Shown one piece after another: positions 6,794 through 32,434 of a stretch of DNA of 33,125 bases (its first letter is position 1; the number at the start of each line of letters is the position of its first letter). The stretch is from an uncultured Erysipelotrichaceae bacterium (GTDB lineage Bacteria > Bacillota_I > Bacilli_A > RF39 > UBA660): assembly GCA_902766545.1 (NCBI GenBank), contig CACXEC010000045.1, positions 1 through 33,125 of the forward strand. Reading direction: 5' to 3'. The notes beneath the pieces were generated by a model. That model did no database searches and was not told the origin of the DNA. It was given only the letters and a program-made list of their open reading frames with translations. The position numbers and the translations under genes were made by a program.

Positions 6794-8521
6794 ATGAAAA
6801 AAATATTAATAGATTTTAAGACAGATAATAGTAAGTTAACGGCTACTATGGTTGACAATGATTATTCACAATCTGTACCTGATGAAAAAGTATATAAACT
6901 AATTGAATTATTAAATGGATTACAAATTCAAAAAATAATTGTGGATGGATCCTTATCAACCATAAAATATGATTCAGGTGAAGTATTTTTTGAAAATTTT
7001 CCTCAATATTTAGATTATGTTCAAAAAAGTTCGAATATTGCTCCAGAAGTAACTGCTTTTTTACAAAAAATTCAAGAATTTGCTAAAGAAAGCATGAAAC
7101 AAAATCTAGAGCTAGCAAGAGCGATTTCAAGTGAAGTTGTTATTAAAGAAGACAGTGAAGAAGCAAAAAATGAAGAAGAAAGAGCTAAAATTGAAGAAAG
7201 ATATATGCAAATTGTTCAAGAATGTGAAGAAAAAGAAGAGTCTAAAAAAGCAATTGAAACAGAGATAACAAAATCACAAAAGAAAAAAGAAGAGATTGCG
7301 GCCTCTATTAAAGATCTTGAAGCACAATTATTAGATATTGATTTAAGAAGTGAAGATGCTAAAACTAAAAGAGAAAGCCTTGAAAGACAAATTGGTGTTT
7401 TAGAAAAAGAAAAAGATCAATTAGATGAACAAATTGCTGGAGCTGAGAAGTGCTTAAAAGAACTTGAAACGCAAATTGAATCGGCTAAAACTGAGCTTAA
7501 AGAATTAAAAGATGAAATAGTAAGGTTAAAAATAGAACTTCATGATTTAAAGGAGCGCATTAAAACTGATAGCTTGGTTCATGAAATAGGGGCAAATGTT
7601 GATAGAATGATTAATGAAAGTACATCTACTCCTGTTATTAGAGATAAGGAGCCTAAAAAGAAAAGAAGATTTAGCCGCGTCGCTGCTGTTGTTGGTAGAA
7701 TGGTTGGTGGTGCTTTAATAATTGGTGTTATGCTTCATTTTGCATATACTGCTGCTATGGAAGTTGTGGAGAATTTTAAGAATTATACTACTCCAGAAAT
7801 TGTTACAACGGCTAACATAGATTATTATAAACCGTATGCTTCTCCAGAGAACACTAGTAGTATTCAATATATATATGCTAGGGAGGCAGATCAAGCTATT
7901 TATGAAGAGTGTAATAATATGTATTATAGAACTTTTAAAAAATATGCTGATTTATATGGATTAGATGAAAGAATTGTAGCTGCTATTGCTACAACAAGCG
8001 GTGGGATTCATTATGAAGATATAAATGATATGGGAAGAGTAGGTATTATGAATTTAAACTATGCACTACTCGTTAATGATTCCGTTGCAGCTTATAATTA
8101 TCAAACTGGTGAATATGAACTTTATCCAGTAACTTATGAAAATATTCAAAAGTTAGATACAAATGTCAAAATAGGATGTATGTATTATCAATCTTTATAT
8201 CGTAGATATAATGGCAATCATATTTTAGCTTTAGAAGCATACTTTTATGGTTATGAATATGTTGATGGGTTATTAAATAGTAAAGCTAAGGAAGCTGGCT
8301 TAGATGTTGCAACTTATATAAGTGAATTGGATAATTCAACTATCAATGAGTTGTTTATGACTGAAGATGGCAGTATATTTGCTTATGATGTATTTATATA
8401 TATACCATCTAATAATGTATTAGAATTTAAAACTGTAAATGGTAGAGAAGCTGGACCAAGTAGGTATAATACTTTCTCTAATTCATATGAAAGAGAAATC
8501 ACACATATAAAAAATACATAA
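6794..8521 (+). CDS. Bitopic protein: cytoplasmic coiled coil, one TM, extracytoplasmic SLT (lytic transglycosylase)-like domain lacking the ES catalytic motif
   Basis: Long E/K heptad region (about aa 110-260). TM is VAAVVGRMVGGALIIGVMLHFAY. The C-terminal LDERIVAAIATTSGG...GRVGIMNL...KIGCMYYQSLYRRYNGNHILALEAYFYGYEYV is colinear with the SLT motifs (ES / GLMQ / AYNaG). Confidence 0.7.
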   Translation: MKKILIDFKTDNSKLTATMVDNDYSQSVPDEKVYKLIELLNGLQIQKIIVDGSLSTIKYDSGEVFFENFPQYLDYVQKSSNIAPEVTAFLQKIQEFAKESMKQNLELARAISSEVVIKEDSEEAKNEEERAKIEERYMQIVQECEEKEESKKAIETEITKSQKKKEEIAASIKDLEAQLLDIDLRSEDAKTKRESLERQIGVLEKEKDQLDEQIAGAEKCLKELETQIESAKTELKELKDEIVRLKIELHDLKERIKTDSLVHEIGANVDRMINESTSTPVIRDKEPKKKRRFSRVAAVVGRMVGGALIIGVMLHFAYTAAMEVVENFKNYTTPEIVTTANIDYYKPYASPENTSSIQYIYAREADQAIYEECNNMYYRTFKKYADLYGLDERIVAAIATTSGGIHYEDINDMGRVGIMNLNYALLVNDSVAAYNYQTGEYELYPVTYENIQKLDTNVKIGCMYYQSLYRRYNGNHILALEAYFYGYEYVDGLLNSKAKEAGLDVATYISELDNSTINELFMTEDGSIFAYDVFIYIPSNNVLEFKTVNGREAGPSRYNTFSNSYEREITHIKNT

Positions 8522-8939: not shown

Positions 8940-9398
8940 ATGTGTAATAATAATGGGTCTGATGGTAATTGCATTGCAGAACTTTTAAAGGTTATATTAG
9001 TTTTACAACAAAATGTTTGTCCAGAAAATGGCTTAGATTCTTGTGATAGACCAATGCTTGGTGGCGGCGGAAACTGTCTAATATGCAATACGAGACCAGT
9101 AATGCTTTATATGTGCTGTGGAAATGGGGTTCCACTTTCAATGCCAACTTCAAAAGATGCAAGACAAGTTTGCTCTAATCCTTCTTTAGGTAGTAGTTGT
9201 CCGGATTGTTCAAATGTCTTTAGGGTCGAAAAAATAGAAGGTAACTGTTGTACATTTAGGGTGCTTACTGCAAATCCAGATGAAAGCTGCTGTAATAGTC
9301 AACCATGGATTGCAACTAATAGTTTCTTTACGATGAATTTAGATTGTTGTTGTATTGTAAGATGTTTAAATGATTGCTACGTTGATTGTGTATGTTAA
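8940..9398 (+). CDS. Cysteine-rich spore coat/exosporium protein, CotY/CotZ/ExsY family
   Basis: 22 Cys in 152 aa. Colinear with B. subtilis CotZ: CIAELLKVILVLQQNV ~ CVREAVENIEDLQNAV; VFRVEKIEGNCCTFRVL ~ FFRVERVHGSCATLSLL; MNLDCCCIVRCLN ~ VDLDCFCAINCLN. Confidence 0.8.
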   Translation: MCNNNGSDGNCIAELLKVILVLQQNVCPENGLDSCDRPMLGGGGNCLICNTRPVMLYMCCGNGVPLSMPTSKDARQVCSNPSLGSSCPDCSNVFRVEKIEGNCCTFRVLTANPDESCCNSQPWIATNSFFTMNLDCCCIVRCLNDCYVDCVC

Positions 9399-12780: not shown

Positions 12781-13836
12781 ATGTTTGGATTAGAAATGGA
12801 TCAAATTGCAAAAATTAAAGTTATTGGAGTAGGTGGCGGTGGATGCAATGCTGTTAACCGAATGATTGAATCTGGTGTTAAAGGTGTTGAGTTTATTGTT
12901 GCCAATACTGATTTACAGGTTTTAAACGCATCTAAAGCTAGTAATAAACTACAAATAGGTGAAAGTATTACTAACGGGTTAGGTGCTGGGGCAAATCCTG
13001 AAGTTGGTAGACAAGCTGCTATTGAAAGTAAAGAAGAAATTAAGGAAGCTCTAAAGGGCGCTGATATGATTTTTGTTACTTGCGGAATGGGTGGTGGAAC
13101 AGGTACAGGAGCTGCACCTGTAATTGCTGAAATTGCTCAAGATATTGGAGCTTTAACAGTTGGGATTGTTACCAAACCATTTAGGTTCGAGGGTAAAAGA
13201 AGGATGGAACAAGCAATTATTGGGATCGATGAGTTAAAGAAACATGTTGATACATTAATTGTTATTCCTAATGATCGATTAAGAGAAATAATTGATAAAT
13301 CTACACCACTTACTGATGCATTTAAAGAAGTTGATAATGTACTTCATCGTGGTGTTCAATCTATTTCTGATTTAATTGCAGTATCAGGTTTAGTAAACCT
13401 AGACTTTGCAGATGTTAAAACAGTTATGGAAAAAAGAGGATCTGCTCTTATTGGTATTGGACTTGGTGTTGGTGAAAATAGAGCAATTGAAGCTGCTAAG
13501 CAAGCAGTGTCTAGTCCGCTACTTGAAACAAGTATTGAGGGAGCAACTGATGCTATAATTAATGTAACTGGTGGAACAAGTCTTACATTATTTGAAGCTG
13601 AAGATGCTGCTGAAGTTGTAAGACAGTCTTCAAATACAGATATTAATATTATTTTTGGTGCGGTTATTAATGAAAATTTAAATGACGAAGTAATTGTAAC
13701 AGTAATTGCTACGGGGTTTGATCGTGAAGATGAAGCAAATGAACCAGAAAAAAAAGAGGAAACTCCTAAATATCGTTATAATGATGATAATGATTTTGAT
13801 ATTCCTACCTTTTTAAGAGATAGAGATAATTTTTAA
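12781..13836 (+). CDS. ftsZ: Cell division GTPase FtsZ
   Basis: [17 protein letters not shown], the tubulin signature [17 protein letters not shown], and the C-terminal peptide DIPTFLR. Confidence 0.97.
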
Positions 13837-13859
13837 GTCTAGAGTACTAGACTTTTTTT
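13836..13859 (+). terminator. Rho-independent terminator after ftsZ
   Basis: AGTCTAG(13836-13842)-agta-CTAGACT(13847-13853), then T6. Confidence 0.65.
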
Positions 13860-13908
13860 ATGCAAAAATGATATACTGATTATATATGGATAATAAAGGA
13901 GATTTATT

Positions 13909-15579
13909 ATGAACAAGAGTACAAAAATAGTATTAATAATATCAATTATTTCTATGATAGCGGTTGTTTCAGCACTATCTTATGCATATGTTAAAACTTA
14001 TCAAACTCAAACGGGGGTAAATACTATTTCCACTTTAGATTGTTTTGGAATAACATATGGTAATAGAGGTGAATATATTGAATTAACTGATACTTTTCCA
14101 ATGACTGATGCAGATGGCCTTAATACTGAACCATATGATTTTACTTTTACTAATAATTGTGACAGTCCTGTTTATGTAACTATTAATTTAGAAGGAACTA
14201 AAGTAACTGAAAATGCACTTGCTTTAACAAGTTTAAGGTATGCTTTTTATCGTACTGGTAGAACAGGTTATACAGCGGGTTCTGTAAATAGTTTAACTAA
14301 TGGTACAAAGGCAAATAGTTCAAGTACAAGTAGTAAAATACTTACTTATGTAATTTTAGGAGCTAACGAGCAAAGAAATTATTCTTTAAAATTATGGATT
14401 GGTGAAAGTGTTAATGTGAGTGAAATGGGAAAAACATATAAAGGTAAGGTAGTTCTTTCGGCAGTACCAATTAATTATACTAAAAAAACAGTGCCAGATT
14501 GGAATACTTCTAGTGGTACACTTTTAAACGCTATAAAAACTGGTAAGTATATATATGCTAATAACATGACTACACCAGGACGTGCAAATAATGCTAGTAA
14601 TGAAGGTATAATTTCAAGTTCAACTGATGACTATGGAACTAGTTATTACTTTAGAGGTAGAATTGATGATAACTATGTTGAATTTGCTAATATGTGCTGG
14701 AGAATAGTTAGAGTTACTGGTTCTGATGGAGGAACGGGAGAATATAATAATGCGATAAAATTAATATTATATAATTATAATCCAAATAATATTGAGCATC
14801 CATGTTCACAATATGTAGCAGGATCTGCCCTTGCTAAAGAATATGATAGTTCTGCAGATGGATTAAAGGGTTATAGTACTTTTAATTCCTCTAGAGATTC
14901 TAATGCATATATAGGATATATGTATGGAACTAGAAGAAGTACAAGCTATGAAGCCGAACACGCAAATACTAATAACTCAGCGATTTTTACTAGTTTAAAA
15001 AAGTGGTATGATTTAAAATTAAGCGATTATAGTGATTATCTAGCAGATGTAATATGGTGTAATGACAAAAGTGTTACAAGTGGAAGCGGTGCTAGTAATG
15101 TAAATTCACATTATGGAGCTTATGATAGAGTTAATAGTAAGACTACTGCTGTTCCGTCTTTGATATGTCCAGATGCTACTACGAATGATGAAAATTATAA
15201 AAAGATATCTAAGTTTACTGCTAGTTCTTCAACTGACGGTGGATATGGTAATGGTGCTTTGGCAGGATATAAAATAGGTTTAATTACAGCTGATGAATTT
15301 GCTTTTGCTGGTGGTAGTACAGATAATAATACTGTGTACTATTTATCAGAAAACGCTAGTGGAGAAGCTTATTGGATGTTATCACCAAATGGAGTTTTTA
15401 GCGGATATTCGAGGGTTTATGCGGTTAATACTTCAGGAGGTTTATCAACCAATAGTCAAACTTATAGTGCCATGGGTGTAAGACCAATGATAGCTTTAAA
15501 GAGTGATGTTACTGTTAATACTGGTAGTGATGGTACTACTACTAATCCTTATATTATTCAAGGAAGGATTGGTGCATAG
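13909..15579 (+). CDS. Secreted/anchored paralog A: TasA/SipW-type signal-like N-terminus, beta-rich N-domain, Cys-patterned DUF6273-like C-terminal module
   Basis: AAAGGAG RBS. N-terminus MNKSTKIVLIISIISMIAVVSALSYAYVKT. Motifs TDDYGTSYYFRG, FANMCWRIVRVTG, NAYIGYMYGT, YEAEHANT, YLADVIWCNDK, YWMLSPNG and GVRPMIALKS are shared with paralog B. Confidence 0.75.
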   Translation: MNKSTKIVLIISIISMIAVVSALSYAYVKTYQTQTGVNTISTLDCFGITYGNRGEYIELTDTFPMTDADGLNTEPYDFTFTNNCDSPVYVTINLEGTKVTENALALTSLRYAFYRTGRTGYTAGSVNSLTNGTKANSSSTSSKILTYVILGANEQRNYSLKLWIGESVNVSEMGKTYKGKVVLSAVPINYTKKTVPDWNTSSGTLLNAIKTGKYIYANNMTTPGRANNASNEGIISSSTDDYGTSYYFRGRIDDNYVEFANMCWRIVRVTGSDGGTGEYNNAIKLILYNYNPNNIEHPCSQYVAGSALAKEYDSSADGLKGYSTFNSSRDSNAYIGYMYGTRRSTSYEAEHANTNNSAIFTSLKKWYDLKLSDYSDYLADVIWCNDKSVTSGSGASNVNSHYGAYDRVNSKTTAVPSLICPDATTNDENYKKISKFTASSSTDGGYGNGALAGYKIGLITADEFAFAGGSTDNNTVYYLSENASGEAYWMLSPNGVFSGYSRVYAVNTSGGLSTNSQTYSAMGVRPMIALKSDVTVNTGSDGTTTNPYIIQGRIGA

Positions 15580-15580
15580 T

Positions 15581-17230
15581 ATGAATAAGAAAAATATAAT
15601 AATAATGATTGCCTCAATTAGTGTATTATTAATAACCGTTATTGGAGGATCATATGCTTATCTTAGATTATCTTTAGTACAGGATTCTAATTATAATAAT
15701 GTTATTAGTACATTGTCTTGTTTAGAAGTGTCAATAAGTGATGTATCCGCTCCCATAACAATTGAAGATGCACTTCCAACTGCTGACAATACTGGAATGG
15801 GATTAACTGGTTATACTTTTAGGTTAAAAAATAATTGTAATAATAGAGTAGAAGCTGAGATTAATTTAGAAAGTTTATCTGTATCTAATCAATTGTCTTT
15901 CAATTATGTAAATTATTCTATTAATGGAAGTGTGCCAGTTGCCTTAAATACTCGTTCAACAGTTTCACCTGCCACAATTTCTGGTGCTACAAGTAAAAAT
16001 ATTTTTAATACAACCATGGCAGCTCAGGAAGAAAGAGAATTTAATTTAAAACTTTGGATTTTAGAATCTTCAACTTTTGCTCAAGCAGGTAATAAGAATT
16101 TTCAAGGTAAAATTGTAGTTTATGCTAAAGCTATAAAAGATACTTGTTTAGAAAAACCAGCAGATATTGTAAATGCTTCTAATGGAACAATACTAAGTAA
16201 ACTTAATAGTGATAGATACTGTTATAGAAATCCAATAACTACTCCAGGAAAACAACTTTCAACTGAAAAAGAAGATATTCTTGCATCTACTACTGATGAT
16301 TATGGGACATCATATTATTTTAGAGGTAATGTTGGAAATAACTACGTTGTATTTGCTAATATGTGCTGGAGAATAGTGCGTATTACTGGAAATGATGGAA
16401 ATAGTGGAGACTATAATAATGCAACCAAGTTAATTCTTCATAATTATAATCCAAATAATCTAGCAAATCCATGTAACCAAATTAGACGTACATATGCTAT
16501 GGCAAGGCATACTGGAACTACTTATGAAATTGCTTTTAATACTGCAAGAAATTATAATGCTTATATTGGATATATGTATGGTACACCAAATGGTGGTTCA
16601 TATGAAGCAGAACATGCAAATACAAAAGATAGTCAAATGCTTGCTAAACTTAAACTATGGTATGATGCTAAACTTAGAAGTTATGATGAATATTTAGCAG
16701 ATACTGTTTGGTGTAATGATAAAAGACTTGGAGTATCTGGTAGAGGATATGGTAATACTTCAACTAGATATAGAGGATTTGACAGGGTTTATCCGTCAAG
16801 TGCTGTTACCAATGCTGCACCATCACTTGCGTGCGGTGAGTCAGCTGCTGATAATCATATAAGTAAATTTACTGCTCAGGAAACTACATATGGTAATGGA
16901 ATGCTTAAGACTGTGACTAATGGACAACCAACTAAATATTATCCAATTGGTTTATTAACTATTGATGAAGCTGAATATGCTGGATATATATATAATTCAG
17001 TTGCAAATTACAATTATTTAATGGAAAACACTCATTCAGTTTGGCTTTTAATGACTCCGGCTAATGGTAGTTCAAATACTACAATTATGGATGTAAATGG
17101 CAATAAATTAACAACAGCATATTCTAATACTACATATGGCGTAAGGCCAATGATATCATTAAAATCAAATGTTGAGGTTACGGGAACTGGTACTTCTATT
17201 GATCCGTATGTGGTACAACCTCTTTCATAA
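15581..17230 (+). CDS. Secreted/anchored paralog B of the preceding gene
   Basis: The true start is ATG 15581 (AGGAAGGA at 15561-15568), 1 nt after the stop of paralog A. The ORF-track start at 15503 lies inside gene A. N-terminus MNKKNIIIMIASISVLLITVIGGSYAYLRLS. Same motif set, e.g. FANMCWRIVRITG and GVRPMISLKS. Confidence 0.75.
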   Translation: MNKKNIIIMIASISVLLITVIGGSYAYLRLSLVQDSNYNNVISTLSCLEVSISDVSAPITIEDALPTADNTGMGLTGYTFRLKNNCNNRVEAEINLESLSVSNQLSFNYVNYSINGSVPVALNTRSTVSPATISGATSKNIFNTTMAAQEEREFNLKLWILESSTFAQAGNKNFQGKIVVYAKAIKDTCLEKPADIVNASNGTILSKLNSDRYCYRNPITTPGKQLSTEKEDILASTTDDYGTSYYFRGNVGNNYVVFANMCWRIVRITGNDGNSGDYNNATKLILHNYNPNNLANPCNQIRRTYAMARHTGTTYEIAFNTARNYNAYIGYMYGTPNGGSYEAEHANTKDSQMLAKLKLWYDAKLRSYDEYLADTVWCNDKRLGVSGRGYGNTSTRYRGFDRVYPSSAVTNAAPSLACGESAADNHISKFTAQETTYGNGMLKTVTNGQPTKYYPIGLLTIDEAEYAGYIYNSVANYNYLMENTHSVWLLMTPANGSSNTTIMDVNGNKLTTAYSNTTYGVRPMISLKSNVEVTGTGTSIDPYVVQPLS

Positions 17231-17237
17231 AAGATAA

Positions 17238-17271
17238 TTCGACACTTTAATTAGTGTCTTTTTTTTATAAT
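17238..17271 (+). promoter_or_regulatory. Candidate Spo0A-dependent spoIIG-type promoter (0A box / -35-like element, long spacer, TATAAT)
   Basis: TTCGACA(17238-17244) is the complement of the 0A box TGTCGAA and contains the -35-like TCGACA. TATAAT is at 17266-17271, giving a 21-bp spacer; the B. subtilis spoIIG promoter has 22 bp. Confidence 0.35.
17241..17266 (+). terminator. Rho-independent terminator after the paralog pair
   Basis: GACACT(17241-17246)-ttaatt-AGTGTC(17253-17258), then T8 (17259-17266). Confidence 0.6.
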
Positions 17272-17277
17272 TATTTT

Positions 17278-18042
17278 ATGATTATATATATTGATTTATT
17301 AATTATTTTAAACTTTTTTATAGACTTAATTCTTTTAATGGGAACTAGCACTTTACTTAAAAGAAAGGCTTCTATTAAAAGAATCTGTTTGGGTGCTTTA
17401 GTAGGAAGTTTATCTTGTTTATTATTATTTTATATTAATAATAATTATGTTTTATTGTTATATAAATTAATTATTAGTATTTTAATGATTTTAATTGCCT
17501 TTAAGTATGAATCTTTTAAATACTTTAAAGATAATTTAGTTTGGCTTTATATTCTAAGTATTATTTTAGGTGGTGCAATATATCTTTTGAGTGATCAGAT
17601 TACATTAAGTAATAAAGGTCTTGTGTTTGGTGGAAATGGTTTAAAAATCAATTTGTTTATGTTAATTATAATTAGTCCATTTATTATTTATAAATATGTT
17701 AAAGAAAGTAAGAACTATCAAATAACTTATTCTAATTATTATGACATAAGCATATATTATGATGAATATGTTTTAAGTGGGGTTGGTTTTTTAGATACAG
17801 GTAATAATTTAAGGGATCCATTTTTTAATCGGCCGATTATTTTGGTTGATAGAAATTTAATTCATGATAATATTAGTACTTTTTTAGTTCCATATTATAC
17901 GCTTAATAAAAGCGATTTATTAGATGTTTTTAAACCTAAAAAAATTATAATTAATAATAAAACTATTAAAAATGTTTTAATTGGTTTAACAAATGTAAAT
18001 ATTGATGGTATTAAAATTATTTTAAATAAGGAGGCTATATGA
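17278..18042 (+). CDS. spoIIGA: Sporulation sigma-E factor processing aspartic protease SpoIIGA
   Basis: MIIYIDLLIILNFFIDLILLMGT ~ B. subtilis MKIYLDVIWLLNFCFDALLLLLT. Catalytic GFLDTGNNL ~ GLIDSGNQL. The GTG at 17254 lies inside the terminator stem, so ATG 17278 is preferred. ATGA overlap with sigE. Confidence 0.85.
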   Translation: MIIYIDLLIILNFFIDLILLMGTSTLLKRKASIKRICLGALVGSLSCLLLFYINNNYVLLLYKLIISILMILIAFKYESFKYFKDNLVWLYILSIILGGAIYLLSDQITLSNKGLVFGGNGLKINLFMLIIISPFIIYKYVKESKNYQITYSNYYDISIYYDEYVLSGVGFLDTGNNLRDPFFNRPIILVDRNLIHDNISTFLVPYYTLNKSDLLDVFKPKKIIINNKTIKNVLIGLTNVNIDGIKIILNKEAI

Positions 18043-27489: not shown

Positions 27490-27576
27490 GCCCATGTGGT
27501 GGAATTGGTAGACGCGTTGGACTCAAAATCCAATGATAGCAATATCGTGAGGGTCCGAGTCCCTCCATGGGCACCA
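27490..27576 (+). tRNA. tRNA-Leu (anticodon CAA), long variable arm, encoded CCA
   Basis: Acceptor GCCCATG/CATGGGC; D region GTGGTGGAATTGGTAGACGCG; anticodon stem-loop TTGGA-CTCAAAA-TCCAA; variable arm; T arm GAGGG-TCCGAGT-CCCTC; ACCA end. Confidence 0.9.
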
Positions 27577-31548: not shown

Positions 31549-31569
31549 ACATATTTTGTCTTTTTTTTT
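31547..31569 (+). terminator. Intrinsic terminator after tspO
   Basis: AGACA-tattt-TGTCT followed by a long T-run. Confidence 0.45.
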
Positions 31570-31591
31570 ATATATTTTAGAAGGTGGTTAT

Positions 31592-32434
31592 ATGAATCAA
31601 ACTTATACTGTTAAAGCTGGAGATACTTTATATGGAATAAGTAATCAGTTTGGAGTTTCTGTTGTTGAATTAGCTAATTTGAATAATGTAGACGCAAATT
31701 CTTTAAGAATTGGGACAGTATTAATTATTCCATCAAATCAGGGAACTAATCCCGATAATATGTTTCTATATACAGTTAAAAAGGGGGATACTTTATATTC
31801 TATTGCTACAAGATATAATACAACTGTTCAAAAAATAATAAGTTTAAATAATTTAAAAAATAGTAGTTTATCAATTAATCAGGTGTTAAAAATACCAGAA
31901 ACATATAGTAATATTTCAGATGAAGTATTACCAGAATTTATAAATTATGTGGTTAAAAAAGGCGATAATTTGTATTCAATTGCTAGAAATAATAATCTTA
32001 CAGTCGATACAATAATTAAAGATAATAATTTATCTACAAATGTATTAATGATTGGTCAAATAATAAAATTAAGACTTACAAGTAATATAGGTGCAACTAT
32101 TGAAGAATGTTTTGGAGATGATTACATACCTAAAGACGAGATAAAATATACTAATTATACGGTTAAAAAAGGCGATTCACTTTATAAAATTGCTAATAAT
32201 TATAATACTAGTGTCAGTGCTATTGTTAATTTAAATAATTTAAAAAGTAATAATTTATCAATTGGTCAAGTATTAAAAATTCCTGTGATGTCAAATGAGA
32301 ATGTTTATACAGTAAAGTCTGGAGATAGTTTATATTCGATAGCTAGAAAATTTAATACGACTGTTGATAACATTAAAAGAAAGAATAATTTAAAATCTAA
32401 TCTTTTATCGATTGGACAAAAAATAATAATATAA
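31592..32434 (+). CDS. Protein made of five LysM peptidoglycan-binding repeats (spore coat/cortex-associated candidate)
   Basis: Five copies of Y(T/V)VK.GD.LY.IA...N..V..I...NNL....L.IGQ.L.IP. AAGGTGG RBS before the ATG at 31592. No signal peptide is visible. Confidence 0.85.
   Translation: MNQTYTVKAGDTLYGISNQFGVSVVELANLNNVDANSLRIGTVLIIPSNQGTNPDNMFLYTVKKGDTLYSIATRYNTTVQKIISLNNLKNSSLSINQVLKIPETYSNISDEVLPEFINYVVKKGDNLYSIARNNNLTVDTIIKDNNLSTNVLMIGQIIKLRLTSNIGATIEECFGDDYIPKDEIKYTNYTVKKGDSLYKIANNYNTSVSAIVNLNNLKSNNLSIGQVLKIPVMSNENVYTVKSGDSLYSIARKFNTTVDNIKRKNNLKSNLLSIGQKIII

Follow-up and report, generated by a model that had tools for sequence, protein, structure and literature searches.

We describe two adjacent genes, here named A and B, that lie between ftsZ and spoIIGA on contig CACXEC010000045.1 of an uncultured Erysipelotrichaceae bacterium; the whole stretch analysed, 33,125 bp with 26% GC, is referred to as the window. 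With moderate confidence, A and B are interpreted as an operon of two genes whose products are exported, modular proteins that bind ligands and are displayed on the surface, each consisting of a TasA-like carrier and a lectin-like head. They belong to a very large, unnamed and fast-evolving family of surface proteins of uncultured gut Bacilli. The building blocks of these proteins are of known kinds, a fold and signal of the TasA/BsaA type and a C-lectin-like fold of the DUF6273 type. New are the unnamed N-domain family, the strongly enlarged variant of DUF6273 and the carrier-plus-head architecture at this scale in gut Bacilli, which was not found in the literature searched.

The two genes and their parts were located as follows.

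13909-15579, + strand: gene A, an open reading frame (ORF) of 556 amino acids (aa) with signal box, N-domain and C-domain.
13909-13986, + strand: signal of gene A, aa 1-26, with a K-rich n-region and an 18-aa hydrophobic core, ending ALSYA/YV (predicted cut after A).
13987-14472, + strand: N-domain of gene A, aa 27-188, a flexible extension (aa 27-45) and a predicted jelly-roll beta-sandwich with Cys45/Cys84.
14491-15561, + strand: C-domain of gene A, aa 195-551, a putative enlarged DUF6273-type (C-type-lectin-like) head with Cys263/299 and Cys384/420.
15319-15468, + strand: the most variable stretch of the C-domain of gene A, aa 471-520, between the ADExAFAG and GVRP motifs.
15581-17230, + strand: gene B, an ORF from ATG 15581, 549 aa, with the three-part architecture of A.
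15581-15658, + strand: signal of gene B, aa 1-26, ending IGGSYA/YL (predicted cut after A).
14682-14708 and 16351-16377, + strand: a 27-nt block, exactly matching in both genes.

The products of A and B were 41% identical over their full length (BLASTP, E 5e-126). Hidden Markov model searches matched both domains in gene A (N-domain E 9e-63, C-domain E 5e-142) and in gene B (E 6e-61 and E 1e-144), and the gene A product was 100% identical to protein P0001. For gene B the ORF tool also offered a longer GTG start at 15503; ATG 15581 was taken as the start because this version aligns with A from residue 1. The stop of A and the start of B are separated by a 1-nt gap, which suggests translational coupling. 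A preliminary description of this DNA, made from the sequence alone, had reported tandem paralogs of 556 and 549 aa with this gap, the 27-nt block and a set of C-terminal motifs. All of these were confirmed, the motifs being invariant or near-invariant columns of the family alignment. The 27-nt block is the longest word common to A and B and codes for part of the invariant FANMCWRIV motif.

A and B are not a private duplicated module; the family to which this pair belongs has thousands of members, and single genomes hold many copies. A full-length query yielded upwards of 5,000 homologs (90% clustering), and no listed homolog carried a functional name; the N-domain profile matched 7,487 clusters (50% identity), of which 4,081 had E<=1e-10. 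A scan of species-representative genomes found 46 loci, with 5 to 11 or more copies per metagenome-assembled genome (MAG), often as tandem pairs; these MAGs are titled uncultured Erysipelotrichaceae, Bacilli or Tenericutes. Searches of Pfam, NCBIfam and PDB with A, B and the domain profiles, by sequence or profile, gave no significant match to a named family, and ATG7, penicillin acylase, CyaY and HYDIN were rejected as chance matches. Contigs bearing the family were also present in MAGs titled Methanobrevibacter sp. and Phocaeicola vulgatus (L009, L010, L020 and L042), most likely through mis-binning or contamination, given their low-GC, Bacilli-type genes.

The modular construction of the family was apparent from the partners of each domain. 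The N-domain match invariably opened the protein, whose length ranged from 168 to 945 aa, and the payload behind it was a DUF6273-type head, DUF285/PARCEL repeats, an RCC1 propeller or an ALK/LTK-type Gly-rich domain with Flg_new repeats. Bare N-domains were found as complete stand-alone genes (178-185 aa) with their own terminator. The C-domain was combined with the N-domain type of the window, with a second type of N-domain (type 2), with other leaders comprising a transmembrane segment plus an immunoglobulin-like part, and with type IV prepilin N-termini. The prepilin fusions (N_methyl E 5e-8 and 3e-5) adjoin pilin or Tad-type genes, and two exceeded the Pfam cutoff.

L034, 9236-10981: C-domain with an N_methyl N-terminus, PF07963 32.6 bits.
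L039, 7125-10130: C-domain with an N_methyl N-terminus, PF07963 23.8 bits; 1001 aa with two C-domains.

Additional C-domain paralogs with type IV prepilin N-termini were seen at L035 (9287-12555) and L046 (5225-8546). The prepilin-fused paralogs sit by other pilin genes or, as read from N-terminal sequences only, directly 3' of a Tad-like locus; the Tad-like locus of L039 (1380-5868) has a TadE-like pilin, CpaE- and CpaF-like ATPases and TadB/C-like genes. Longer paralogs of 630-740 aa (P0005, P0024, P0039, P0083 and P0087; L018, L023, L024, L029 and L033) contain, between N-domain and C-domain, one or two copies of an extra module (about 90-100 aa) with the motif Y(Y/W)TYGTG...(F/K)(N/T)LTGV...Y..L.GKY(I/L)V, for which no family name was found.

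A and B each contain a single hydrophobic segment, which is N-terminal (aa 6/7-24), follows a Lys-rich start and precedes a conserved box. The SYAY box pointed out in the preliminary description proved to be real and family-wide. Its consensus in 122 family sequences was G-[VLI]-[ST]-[YF]-A|[YWLF]-[FLY], with the following composition.

Position -5: G in 95%.
Position -4: V, L or I.
Position -3: S or T in 100%.
Position -2: Y or F in 98%.
Position -1: A in 99%.
Position +1: Y, L, W or F.
Position +2: F, Y or L.

Ala26 was among the three invariant columns of the N-domain in a 26-sequence alignment (24-37% identity to gene A). The consensus has the features of a SipW-class signal, a small residue at -3, Ala at -1 and an aromatic residue just after the cut. 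In hhalign comparisons with an alignment of 24 proteins named TasA or CalY and annotated PF12389, the box fell exactly on the TasA site G-G-T-W-A|A-F, and A26 stood opposite the cleavage-site Ala. TasA needs the archaeal-type peptidase SipW owing to an aromatic residue at P2' (PMC10269814), and in the A/B family both P1' and P2' are aromatic or Leu. Cleavage of the A and B signals by a SipW-type enzyme is likely. The N-terminal peptides also gave weak matches to TIGR04090, the SipW-dependent BsaA family (E 0.1-0.2; E 0.2 for the signal region of gene B). Peptidases of the SipW-type TIGR02228 class, above the curated cutoff, were found no more than about 6 kb from family members in two related MAGs.

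L011, 11403-12296: SipW-type peptidase, TIGR02228, 61 bits.
L022, 2943-3392: SipW-type peptidase, TIGR02228, 79 bits.

The surroundings of these two genes were also inspected. In L011 (10237-13816) two SipW-like genes, one strong and one weak, are interleaved with small signal-bearing proteins whose family is unknown. In L022 (2943-3956) the peptidase is followed by a 183-aa protein ending in a DUF6273-like WW-x-SP...RPV-x-L tail.

The main rival explanation is that the signal stays uncleaved, so that A and B are signal-anchored monomers, type II membrane proteins in which the jelly-roll is a stalk and no polymer is formed. We consider this possible but rather unlikely. The AlphaFold2 (AF2) model of gene A has the signal as one continuous helix over aa 3-32 that runs through the SYAY box, and the hydrophobic segment is the only anchor in either protein: A and B have no LPxTG-like sortase motif, no C-terminal hydrophobic segment, no lipobox and no Cys within the first 40 residues. 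In addition, the N-termini give weak matches to models of the N-termini of mycoplasma membrane proteins and adhesins, the 33-kb window shows no SipW gene, and BsaA polymers themselves remain membrane-associated (PMC11580942). However, invariant Ala at -1 and S or T at -3 would be superfluous in a plain anchor, and the box aligns with the TasA cleavage site. Stand-alone N-domain genes of 178-185 aa make little sense as bare stalks, and SipW-type peptidases are encoded beside family members in relatives.

The N-domain was modelled from the 26-sequence alignment with a pLDDT of 86.7. In this model aa 31-41 are disordered and aa 46-187 form an eight- to nine-stranded beta-sandwich. The top Foldseek match in PDB was AbpA (7ueg, E 2e-4, TM-score 0.35-0.37), the bundling pilin of Pyrobaculum, which forms a TasA-like donor-strand filament (PMC9245690); CanA (9hdi), a donor-strand polymer, was at rank 18. 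In hhalign the window-type N-domain (A2) matched TasA with a probability of 34% (E 4.3e-4, 81 columns) and the sister type-2 N-domain with 68% (E 4.7e-5), while the two N-domain types were related to each other with a probability of 99.6%. Type 2 occurs in paralogs and has the pattern GxSYAFFTA..AGxMxIxY..NIYP..KTFTVTGNNTTD. The register with TasA covers the cleavage box plus the first three strands. Cys45 and Cys84 co-vary perfectly, both being present in 119 sequences and neither in 3. A Lys/Asn/Glu isopeptide triad of the BsaA type was considered and dropped; the window-type N-domain conserves both N82 and K175, but type 2 does not conserve K175.

A and B resemble TasA, CalY, BsaA and AbpA in several features. 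All have an N-terminal signal ending small-x-Ala followed by aromatic residues, and an all-beta jelly-roll of about 150 aa, predicted in the case of A and B. The order of motifs is that of TasA: the cleavage box, a first strand (AGxL in TasA, (C)hxh in A/B), L-x-N/D-x-x-P and F-x-h-x-N-x-(G/C), with a terminal strand of TasA-like order, K-x-(Y/F/W)-x-G-K-h-h-h. Multiple paralogs per genome are found in the A/B family as in BsaA/TasA (PMC11580942). Unlike members of the TasA class, A and B have no PF12389 match, their similarity is restricted to the N-terminal half, and a Cys pair takes the place of the N-x-G turn. They also differ in the C-terminal payload of about 355 aa, for which no counterpart in TasA, BsaA or AbpA was found in the literature searched, and in having no adjacent sipW or tapA-like gene. 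The N-domain is probably a very divergent relative of the TasA/BsaA/AbpA class, a kinship consistent with the extreme sequence divergence reported for this class (PMC11580942), although formal TasA membership of A and B is not established. The earlier view of a TasA-like N-domain finds support in the modelled jelly-roll and the top match to AbpA, but none in matches to Peptidase_M73 or TIGR04088.

The C-domain was aligned from 16 sequences with 43-53% identity to gene A and had about 58 invariant columns. Many of the invariant residues are polar (DDYG, R, N, HAN, WCNDK, SK, TADE and VRP). Six Cys are conserved between A (45, 84, 263, 299, 384 and 420) and B (47, 86, 262, 298, 378 and 418); they co-vary as three pairs, those of the C-domain being 263/299 and 384/420, and gene B has two Cys more. 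The six conserved Cys noted earlier were thus confirmed, and the description of A and B as exported, two-module paralogs containing Cys pairs is supported.

The sole significant PDB match of the C-domain model was 9qa6 (Foldseek, E 6.7e-4, 352 columns), the IgA peptidase of Thomasclavelia ramosa, whose N-terminal domain is annotated DUF6273; as Foldseek gave no aligned coordinates, the match is placed on this domain by inference. In BFVD the C-domain matched several DUF6273 domain-containing proteins of gut phages (E 1.7e-5 to 1e-2) and tail-fibre-like proteins. At the sequence level Pfam DUF6273 (PF19789, gathering score 23.5 bits) gave 19.3 bits for gene B (aa 478-529, profile positions 126-172) and no match for gene A, and it matched the C-domains of 6 of the 16 relatives at E<=0.1 (best E 2e-5). 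The resemblance to DUF6273 claimed earlier is therefore upheld for the fold, by 9qa6, the phage proteins and these six relatives, whereas the Pfam scores of A and B remain below the gathering score. Like DUF6273, A and B have the layout W-R-I-V ... W-x-L-S-P ... G-V-R-P-x-I-x-L and a variable stretch just 5' of the conserved G-V-R-P end. Unlike DUF6273, their C-domain is about twice the size of the Pfam model (355 aa against 172) and has extra conserved segments (NAYxGxMYG, HANT, WCNDK and PSLxC) and two Cys pairs. The model comparisons support the C-domain as a divergent, enlarged fold of the DUF6273 type.

DUF6273 is a C-type-lectin-like, receptor-binding module of phages and a target of diversity-generating retroelements (DGRs), and in such targets the variable, ligand-binding region is near the C-terminus (PMC10743442; bioRxiv 2024.10.15.618418). 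In gene A the column entropy of aa 471-520 was 1.7-2.65 bits, against 0.1-0.9 in core motifs; by analogy, this stretch would be the position-equivalent of the variable ligand-binding region in DUF6273/C-lectin DGR targets. Strain-level differences in gene B cluster at 310-324 and 498-516.

A second alternative, which we regard as improbable, is that A and B are secreted enzymes with a catalytic C-domain, for example glycan- or peptide-modifying, which the N-domain only targets or tethers. The number of invariant columns, many of them polar, exceeds what a scaffold would require, the one relative with a solved structure is a domain from a secreted peptidase, and the ftsZ-spoIIGA junction of B. 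subtilis carries a protease gene, bpr. Sequence and profile searches of Pfam, NCBIfam and PDB matched the C-terminal half to no enzyme family, and the other structural relatives are phage DUF6273 proteins and proteins of the tail-fibre type. The variable region coincides with the DUF6273 binding surface, and on the same carrier the C-domain is exchanged for repeat and propeller binding modules. The related domain of the T. ramosa IgA peptidase is itself non-catalytic and dispensable for catalysis (PMC12402451).

For A and B as displayed binding proteins, we propose the following route. Both proteins would enter the Sec pathway by their N-terminal signal. An archaeal-type (SipW-like) peptidase, whose gene would lie in another part of the genome, would most likely cut off this signal behind the invariant [ST]-[YF]-A. 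An ordinary signal peptidase is disfavoured because of the aromatic residues at P1'/P2'. The mature protein would begin with a flexible, beta-prone extension of about 18 residues, followed by a disulfide-braced jelly-roll of the TasA/BsaA/AbpA kind as the carrier. The enlarged DUF6273-type head would contain two more disulfides and have its most variable loops where DUF6273 proteins vary their ligand-binding surface, and may bind an external ligand such as a host or microbial glycan or protein. The carrier would present this head on the cell surface, in the favoured mode as a subunit of a TasA-like fibre in which the N-terminal extension of one subunit completes the sandwich of the next. Diversity would arise by gene multiplication and cassette exchange and not by a retroelement, and the position between ftsZ and spoIIGA would be an incidental insertion site.

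The presentation of A and B as subunits of a TasA-like donor-strand fibre is the more doubtful part of this proposal. It is plausible because of the similarities to AbpA and TasA, the free beta-prone extension, the bare N-domain genes and the presence of the same head on type IV pilins. TasA, CalY and BsaA form SipW-dependent fibres of the biofilm matrix; polymerisation of A and B is inferred. A tentative extension, about as doubtful, is that the N-domain represents an unnamed branch of TasA/BsaA-type donor-strand pilins, a universal carrier processed by SipW, with bare copies forming the shaft and head-bearing copies decorating it. It is equally tentative that the heads on this carrier (DUF6273-type, PARCEL/DUF285, RCC1 and Gly-rich) are interchangeable and may alternatively be mounted on type IV pilins. 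With the same reserve, A and B would be seen in this scheme as two subunits, each bearing a head, of a combinatorial system of adhesive fibres.

Two other systems are comparable in arrangement. In type IV pilin-adhesin fusions and pilus tip adhesins, as proposed for A and B, a filament-forming N-module carries a large C-terminal binding head. A and B themselves are not type IV pilins, because they lack the prepilin motif (G|F-T-L-x-E; PF07963, N_methyl) and their hydrophobic segment precedes the box and does not follow the cleavage site as in pilins. The PARCEL/DUF285 surface proteins of Mycoplasma, Listeria and relatives share the logic of display and the lineages, and in the nearest relative of the window (L002) the same N-domain carries such a head; A and B differ from these proteins in lacking PARCEL repeats and in not being lipoproteins.

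The following points weigh against reading A and B as TasA-like carriers with a binding head, in addition to the lack of a SipW gene in the window. TasA itself was absent from the top 50 Foldseek matches of the N-domain, and the TM-scores were modest (0.35-0.39), with Pgp3, C1q and other jelly-rolls scoring alike. No Pfam or NCBIfam model matched the N-domain. Peptidase_M73 (PF12389, gathering score 22.5 bits) did not match A or B at E<=1, and 26 of 27 N-domains had no match to it, P0078 alone giving 17.2 bits (E 0.0046). TIGR04088, the SipW-type signal, was never listed for the N-terminal peptides of A and B in NCBIfam at E<=10. The hhalign probabilities to TasA are low and cover the N-terminal half only. 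As regards the head, the AF2 model of the C-domain is of moderate confidence (pLDDT 74.4, pTM 0.83), its sole solved relative has no known function, and the invariant polar residues could mark a catalytic site and not a binding site.

The order of genes in the window is murT/gatD (minus strand), ftsA, ftsZ, gene A, gene B, spoIIGA, sigE, sigG and lspA, followed by more genes. The signals for expression around A and B are listed below.

13835-13859, + strand: predicted intrinsic terminator of ftsZ, an 8-bp stem with 3 GC pairs (13835-13854), then a T-run.
13848-13877, + strand: candidate sigma-70-type promoter, TAGACT, 18 nt, TG-n-TATACT (extended -10), with 9/12 consensus matches.
13895-13901, + strand: ribosome-binding site of gene A, AAAGGAG, 7 nt 5' of the ATG, read from the sequence.
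17241-17266, + strand: predicted intrinsic terminator of the A-B unit, a 6-bp stem (17241-17258), then T8, just 5' of spoIIGA.

The upstream terminator closes the division operon, and terminator-like sites in the scanned region numbered 3 against 0.9 expected. The hairpins and T-runs on both sides, with the TG before TATACT, bear out the earlier view that A and B form their own unit; the promoter is a candidate by position, such matches being no more frequent than chance in AT-rich DNA. With a GC content of 0.31-0.32, A and B are intermediate between ftsZ (0.35) and spoIIGA (0.20), and thus show no anomaly that would signal horizontal transfer.

Besides the window, the family is found at the ftsZ-spoIIGA junction in L002 only. 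FtsZ of L002 is 92% identical to that of the window and SpoIIGA 66.5%, whereas its two inserted genes share 32-49% identity with A and B; the inserted genes at this junction evolve fast compared with FtsZ. The second inserted gene of L002 has the N-domain of A and B but a DUF285/PARCEL head. The A-B pair is therefore a cassette arrangement and not a fixed heterodimer. Family members also occur at dozens of housekeeping loci unrelated to this one, where their neighbours include ezrA, fmt, pilin genes and tRNA synthetases. In an all-against-all comparison of 894 ORFs from 51 loci, no neighbour family besides the family itself recurred in more than five loci, and the A/B family has no dedicated operon partner.

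These data bear on a tie to division or sporulation, as suggested in the preliminary description, in which the pair would be a component of the ftsAZ-spoIIGA-sigE-sigG cluster, for example in remodelling of the septum or forespore surface. We consider this very improbable. The position is common to the window and the related genome, and the window contains sporulation genes including one for a CotZ-like protein. However, the A-B unit is framed by its own terminators and has a vegetative-type promoter candidate, its homologs occupy unrelated loci, and the occupants of the junction diverge far more than FtsZ, one with a different head. The family is also present in related MAGs labelled Tenericutes.

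Least probable is that A and B are DGR targets or prophage-derived receptor-binding proteins with a DUF6273-type head that a retroelement diversifies, as happens in gut phages: DGRs are documented to target the DUF6273 fold, the variable stretch is at the equivalent C-terminal position and the best BFVD matches are phage proteins, but the flanks are housekeeping and not phage genes, the GC content is native, and neither a reverse-transcriptase-like ORF (by a rough pattern of YxDD plus G..SQ, no profile search being made) nor an A-biased template/variable repeat pair (maximum A-bias 0.64, against more than 0.9 for DGRs) was found in the window or 50 related loci. DGR diversification was accordingly rejected for this locus, and A and B differ from phage DGR targets such as tentaclins and Mtd-like proteins in being chromosomal, multi-copy and without a DGR link.

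Other genes of the window were recorded as follows. The ORF tool listed spoIIGA at 17254-18042 with a GTG start inside the T-run of the terminator closing gene B, and the true start is probably a downstream in-frame one; SpoIIGA has 262 aa in the window and 254 aa in the L002 ortholog. The earlier statement that the window has no signal peptidase held for signal peptidase I, none being seen there, but lspA (Peptidase_A8), assigned by synteny with L002, is present as the only signal peptidase seen. A very Cys-rich 152-aa protein, encoded at 8940-9398 (+) with a PTS EIIB-like gene on one side and gatD/murT on the other, matches Spore-coat_CotZ in a precomputed annotation of the identical contig. 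The gene at 6794-8521 (+) encodes 575 aa with a long Glu/Lys-rich coiled-coil, one transmembrane segment and a C-terminal SLT domain (lytic-transglycosylase-like, weak); L002 has tyrS at this position. A 292-aa ORF at 31556-32434 (+) has four directly repeated units (31769-32413), about 108 nt long and 65-74% identical, each opening with YTVK.GD(T/S)LY and resembling LysM by the look of the sequence. A single tRNA-Leu(CAA) at 27490-27576 (+) was the sole Rfam or ARAGORN match in the window.

The hosts of this family are little-known low-GC Bacilli from the gut of humans and animals, most of them uncultured, and despite the scale of the family neither the N-domain nor the C-domain of A passes any Pfam or NCBIfam threshold. 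For annotation, the neighbours do not justify calling the A-B pair division or sporulation genes. If the interpretation as displayed binding proteins is true, 5 to 11 or more genes per MAG would be devoted to a modular display system, in which either a TasA-like carrier or type IV pilins would bear the variable lectin-like and repeat heads. The TasA/BsaA family is so far known as plain matrix subunits, and cargo-bearing subunits would extend it. DUF6273, mainly known from phage DGR targets and the IgA protease domain, would gain a cellular, non-DGR context.

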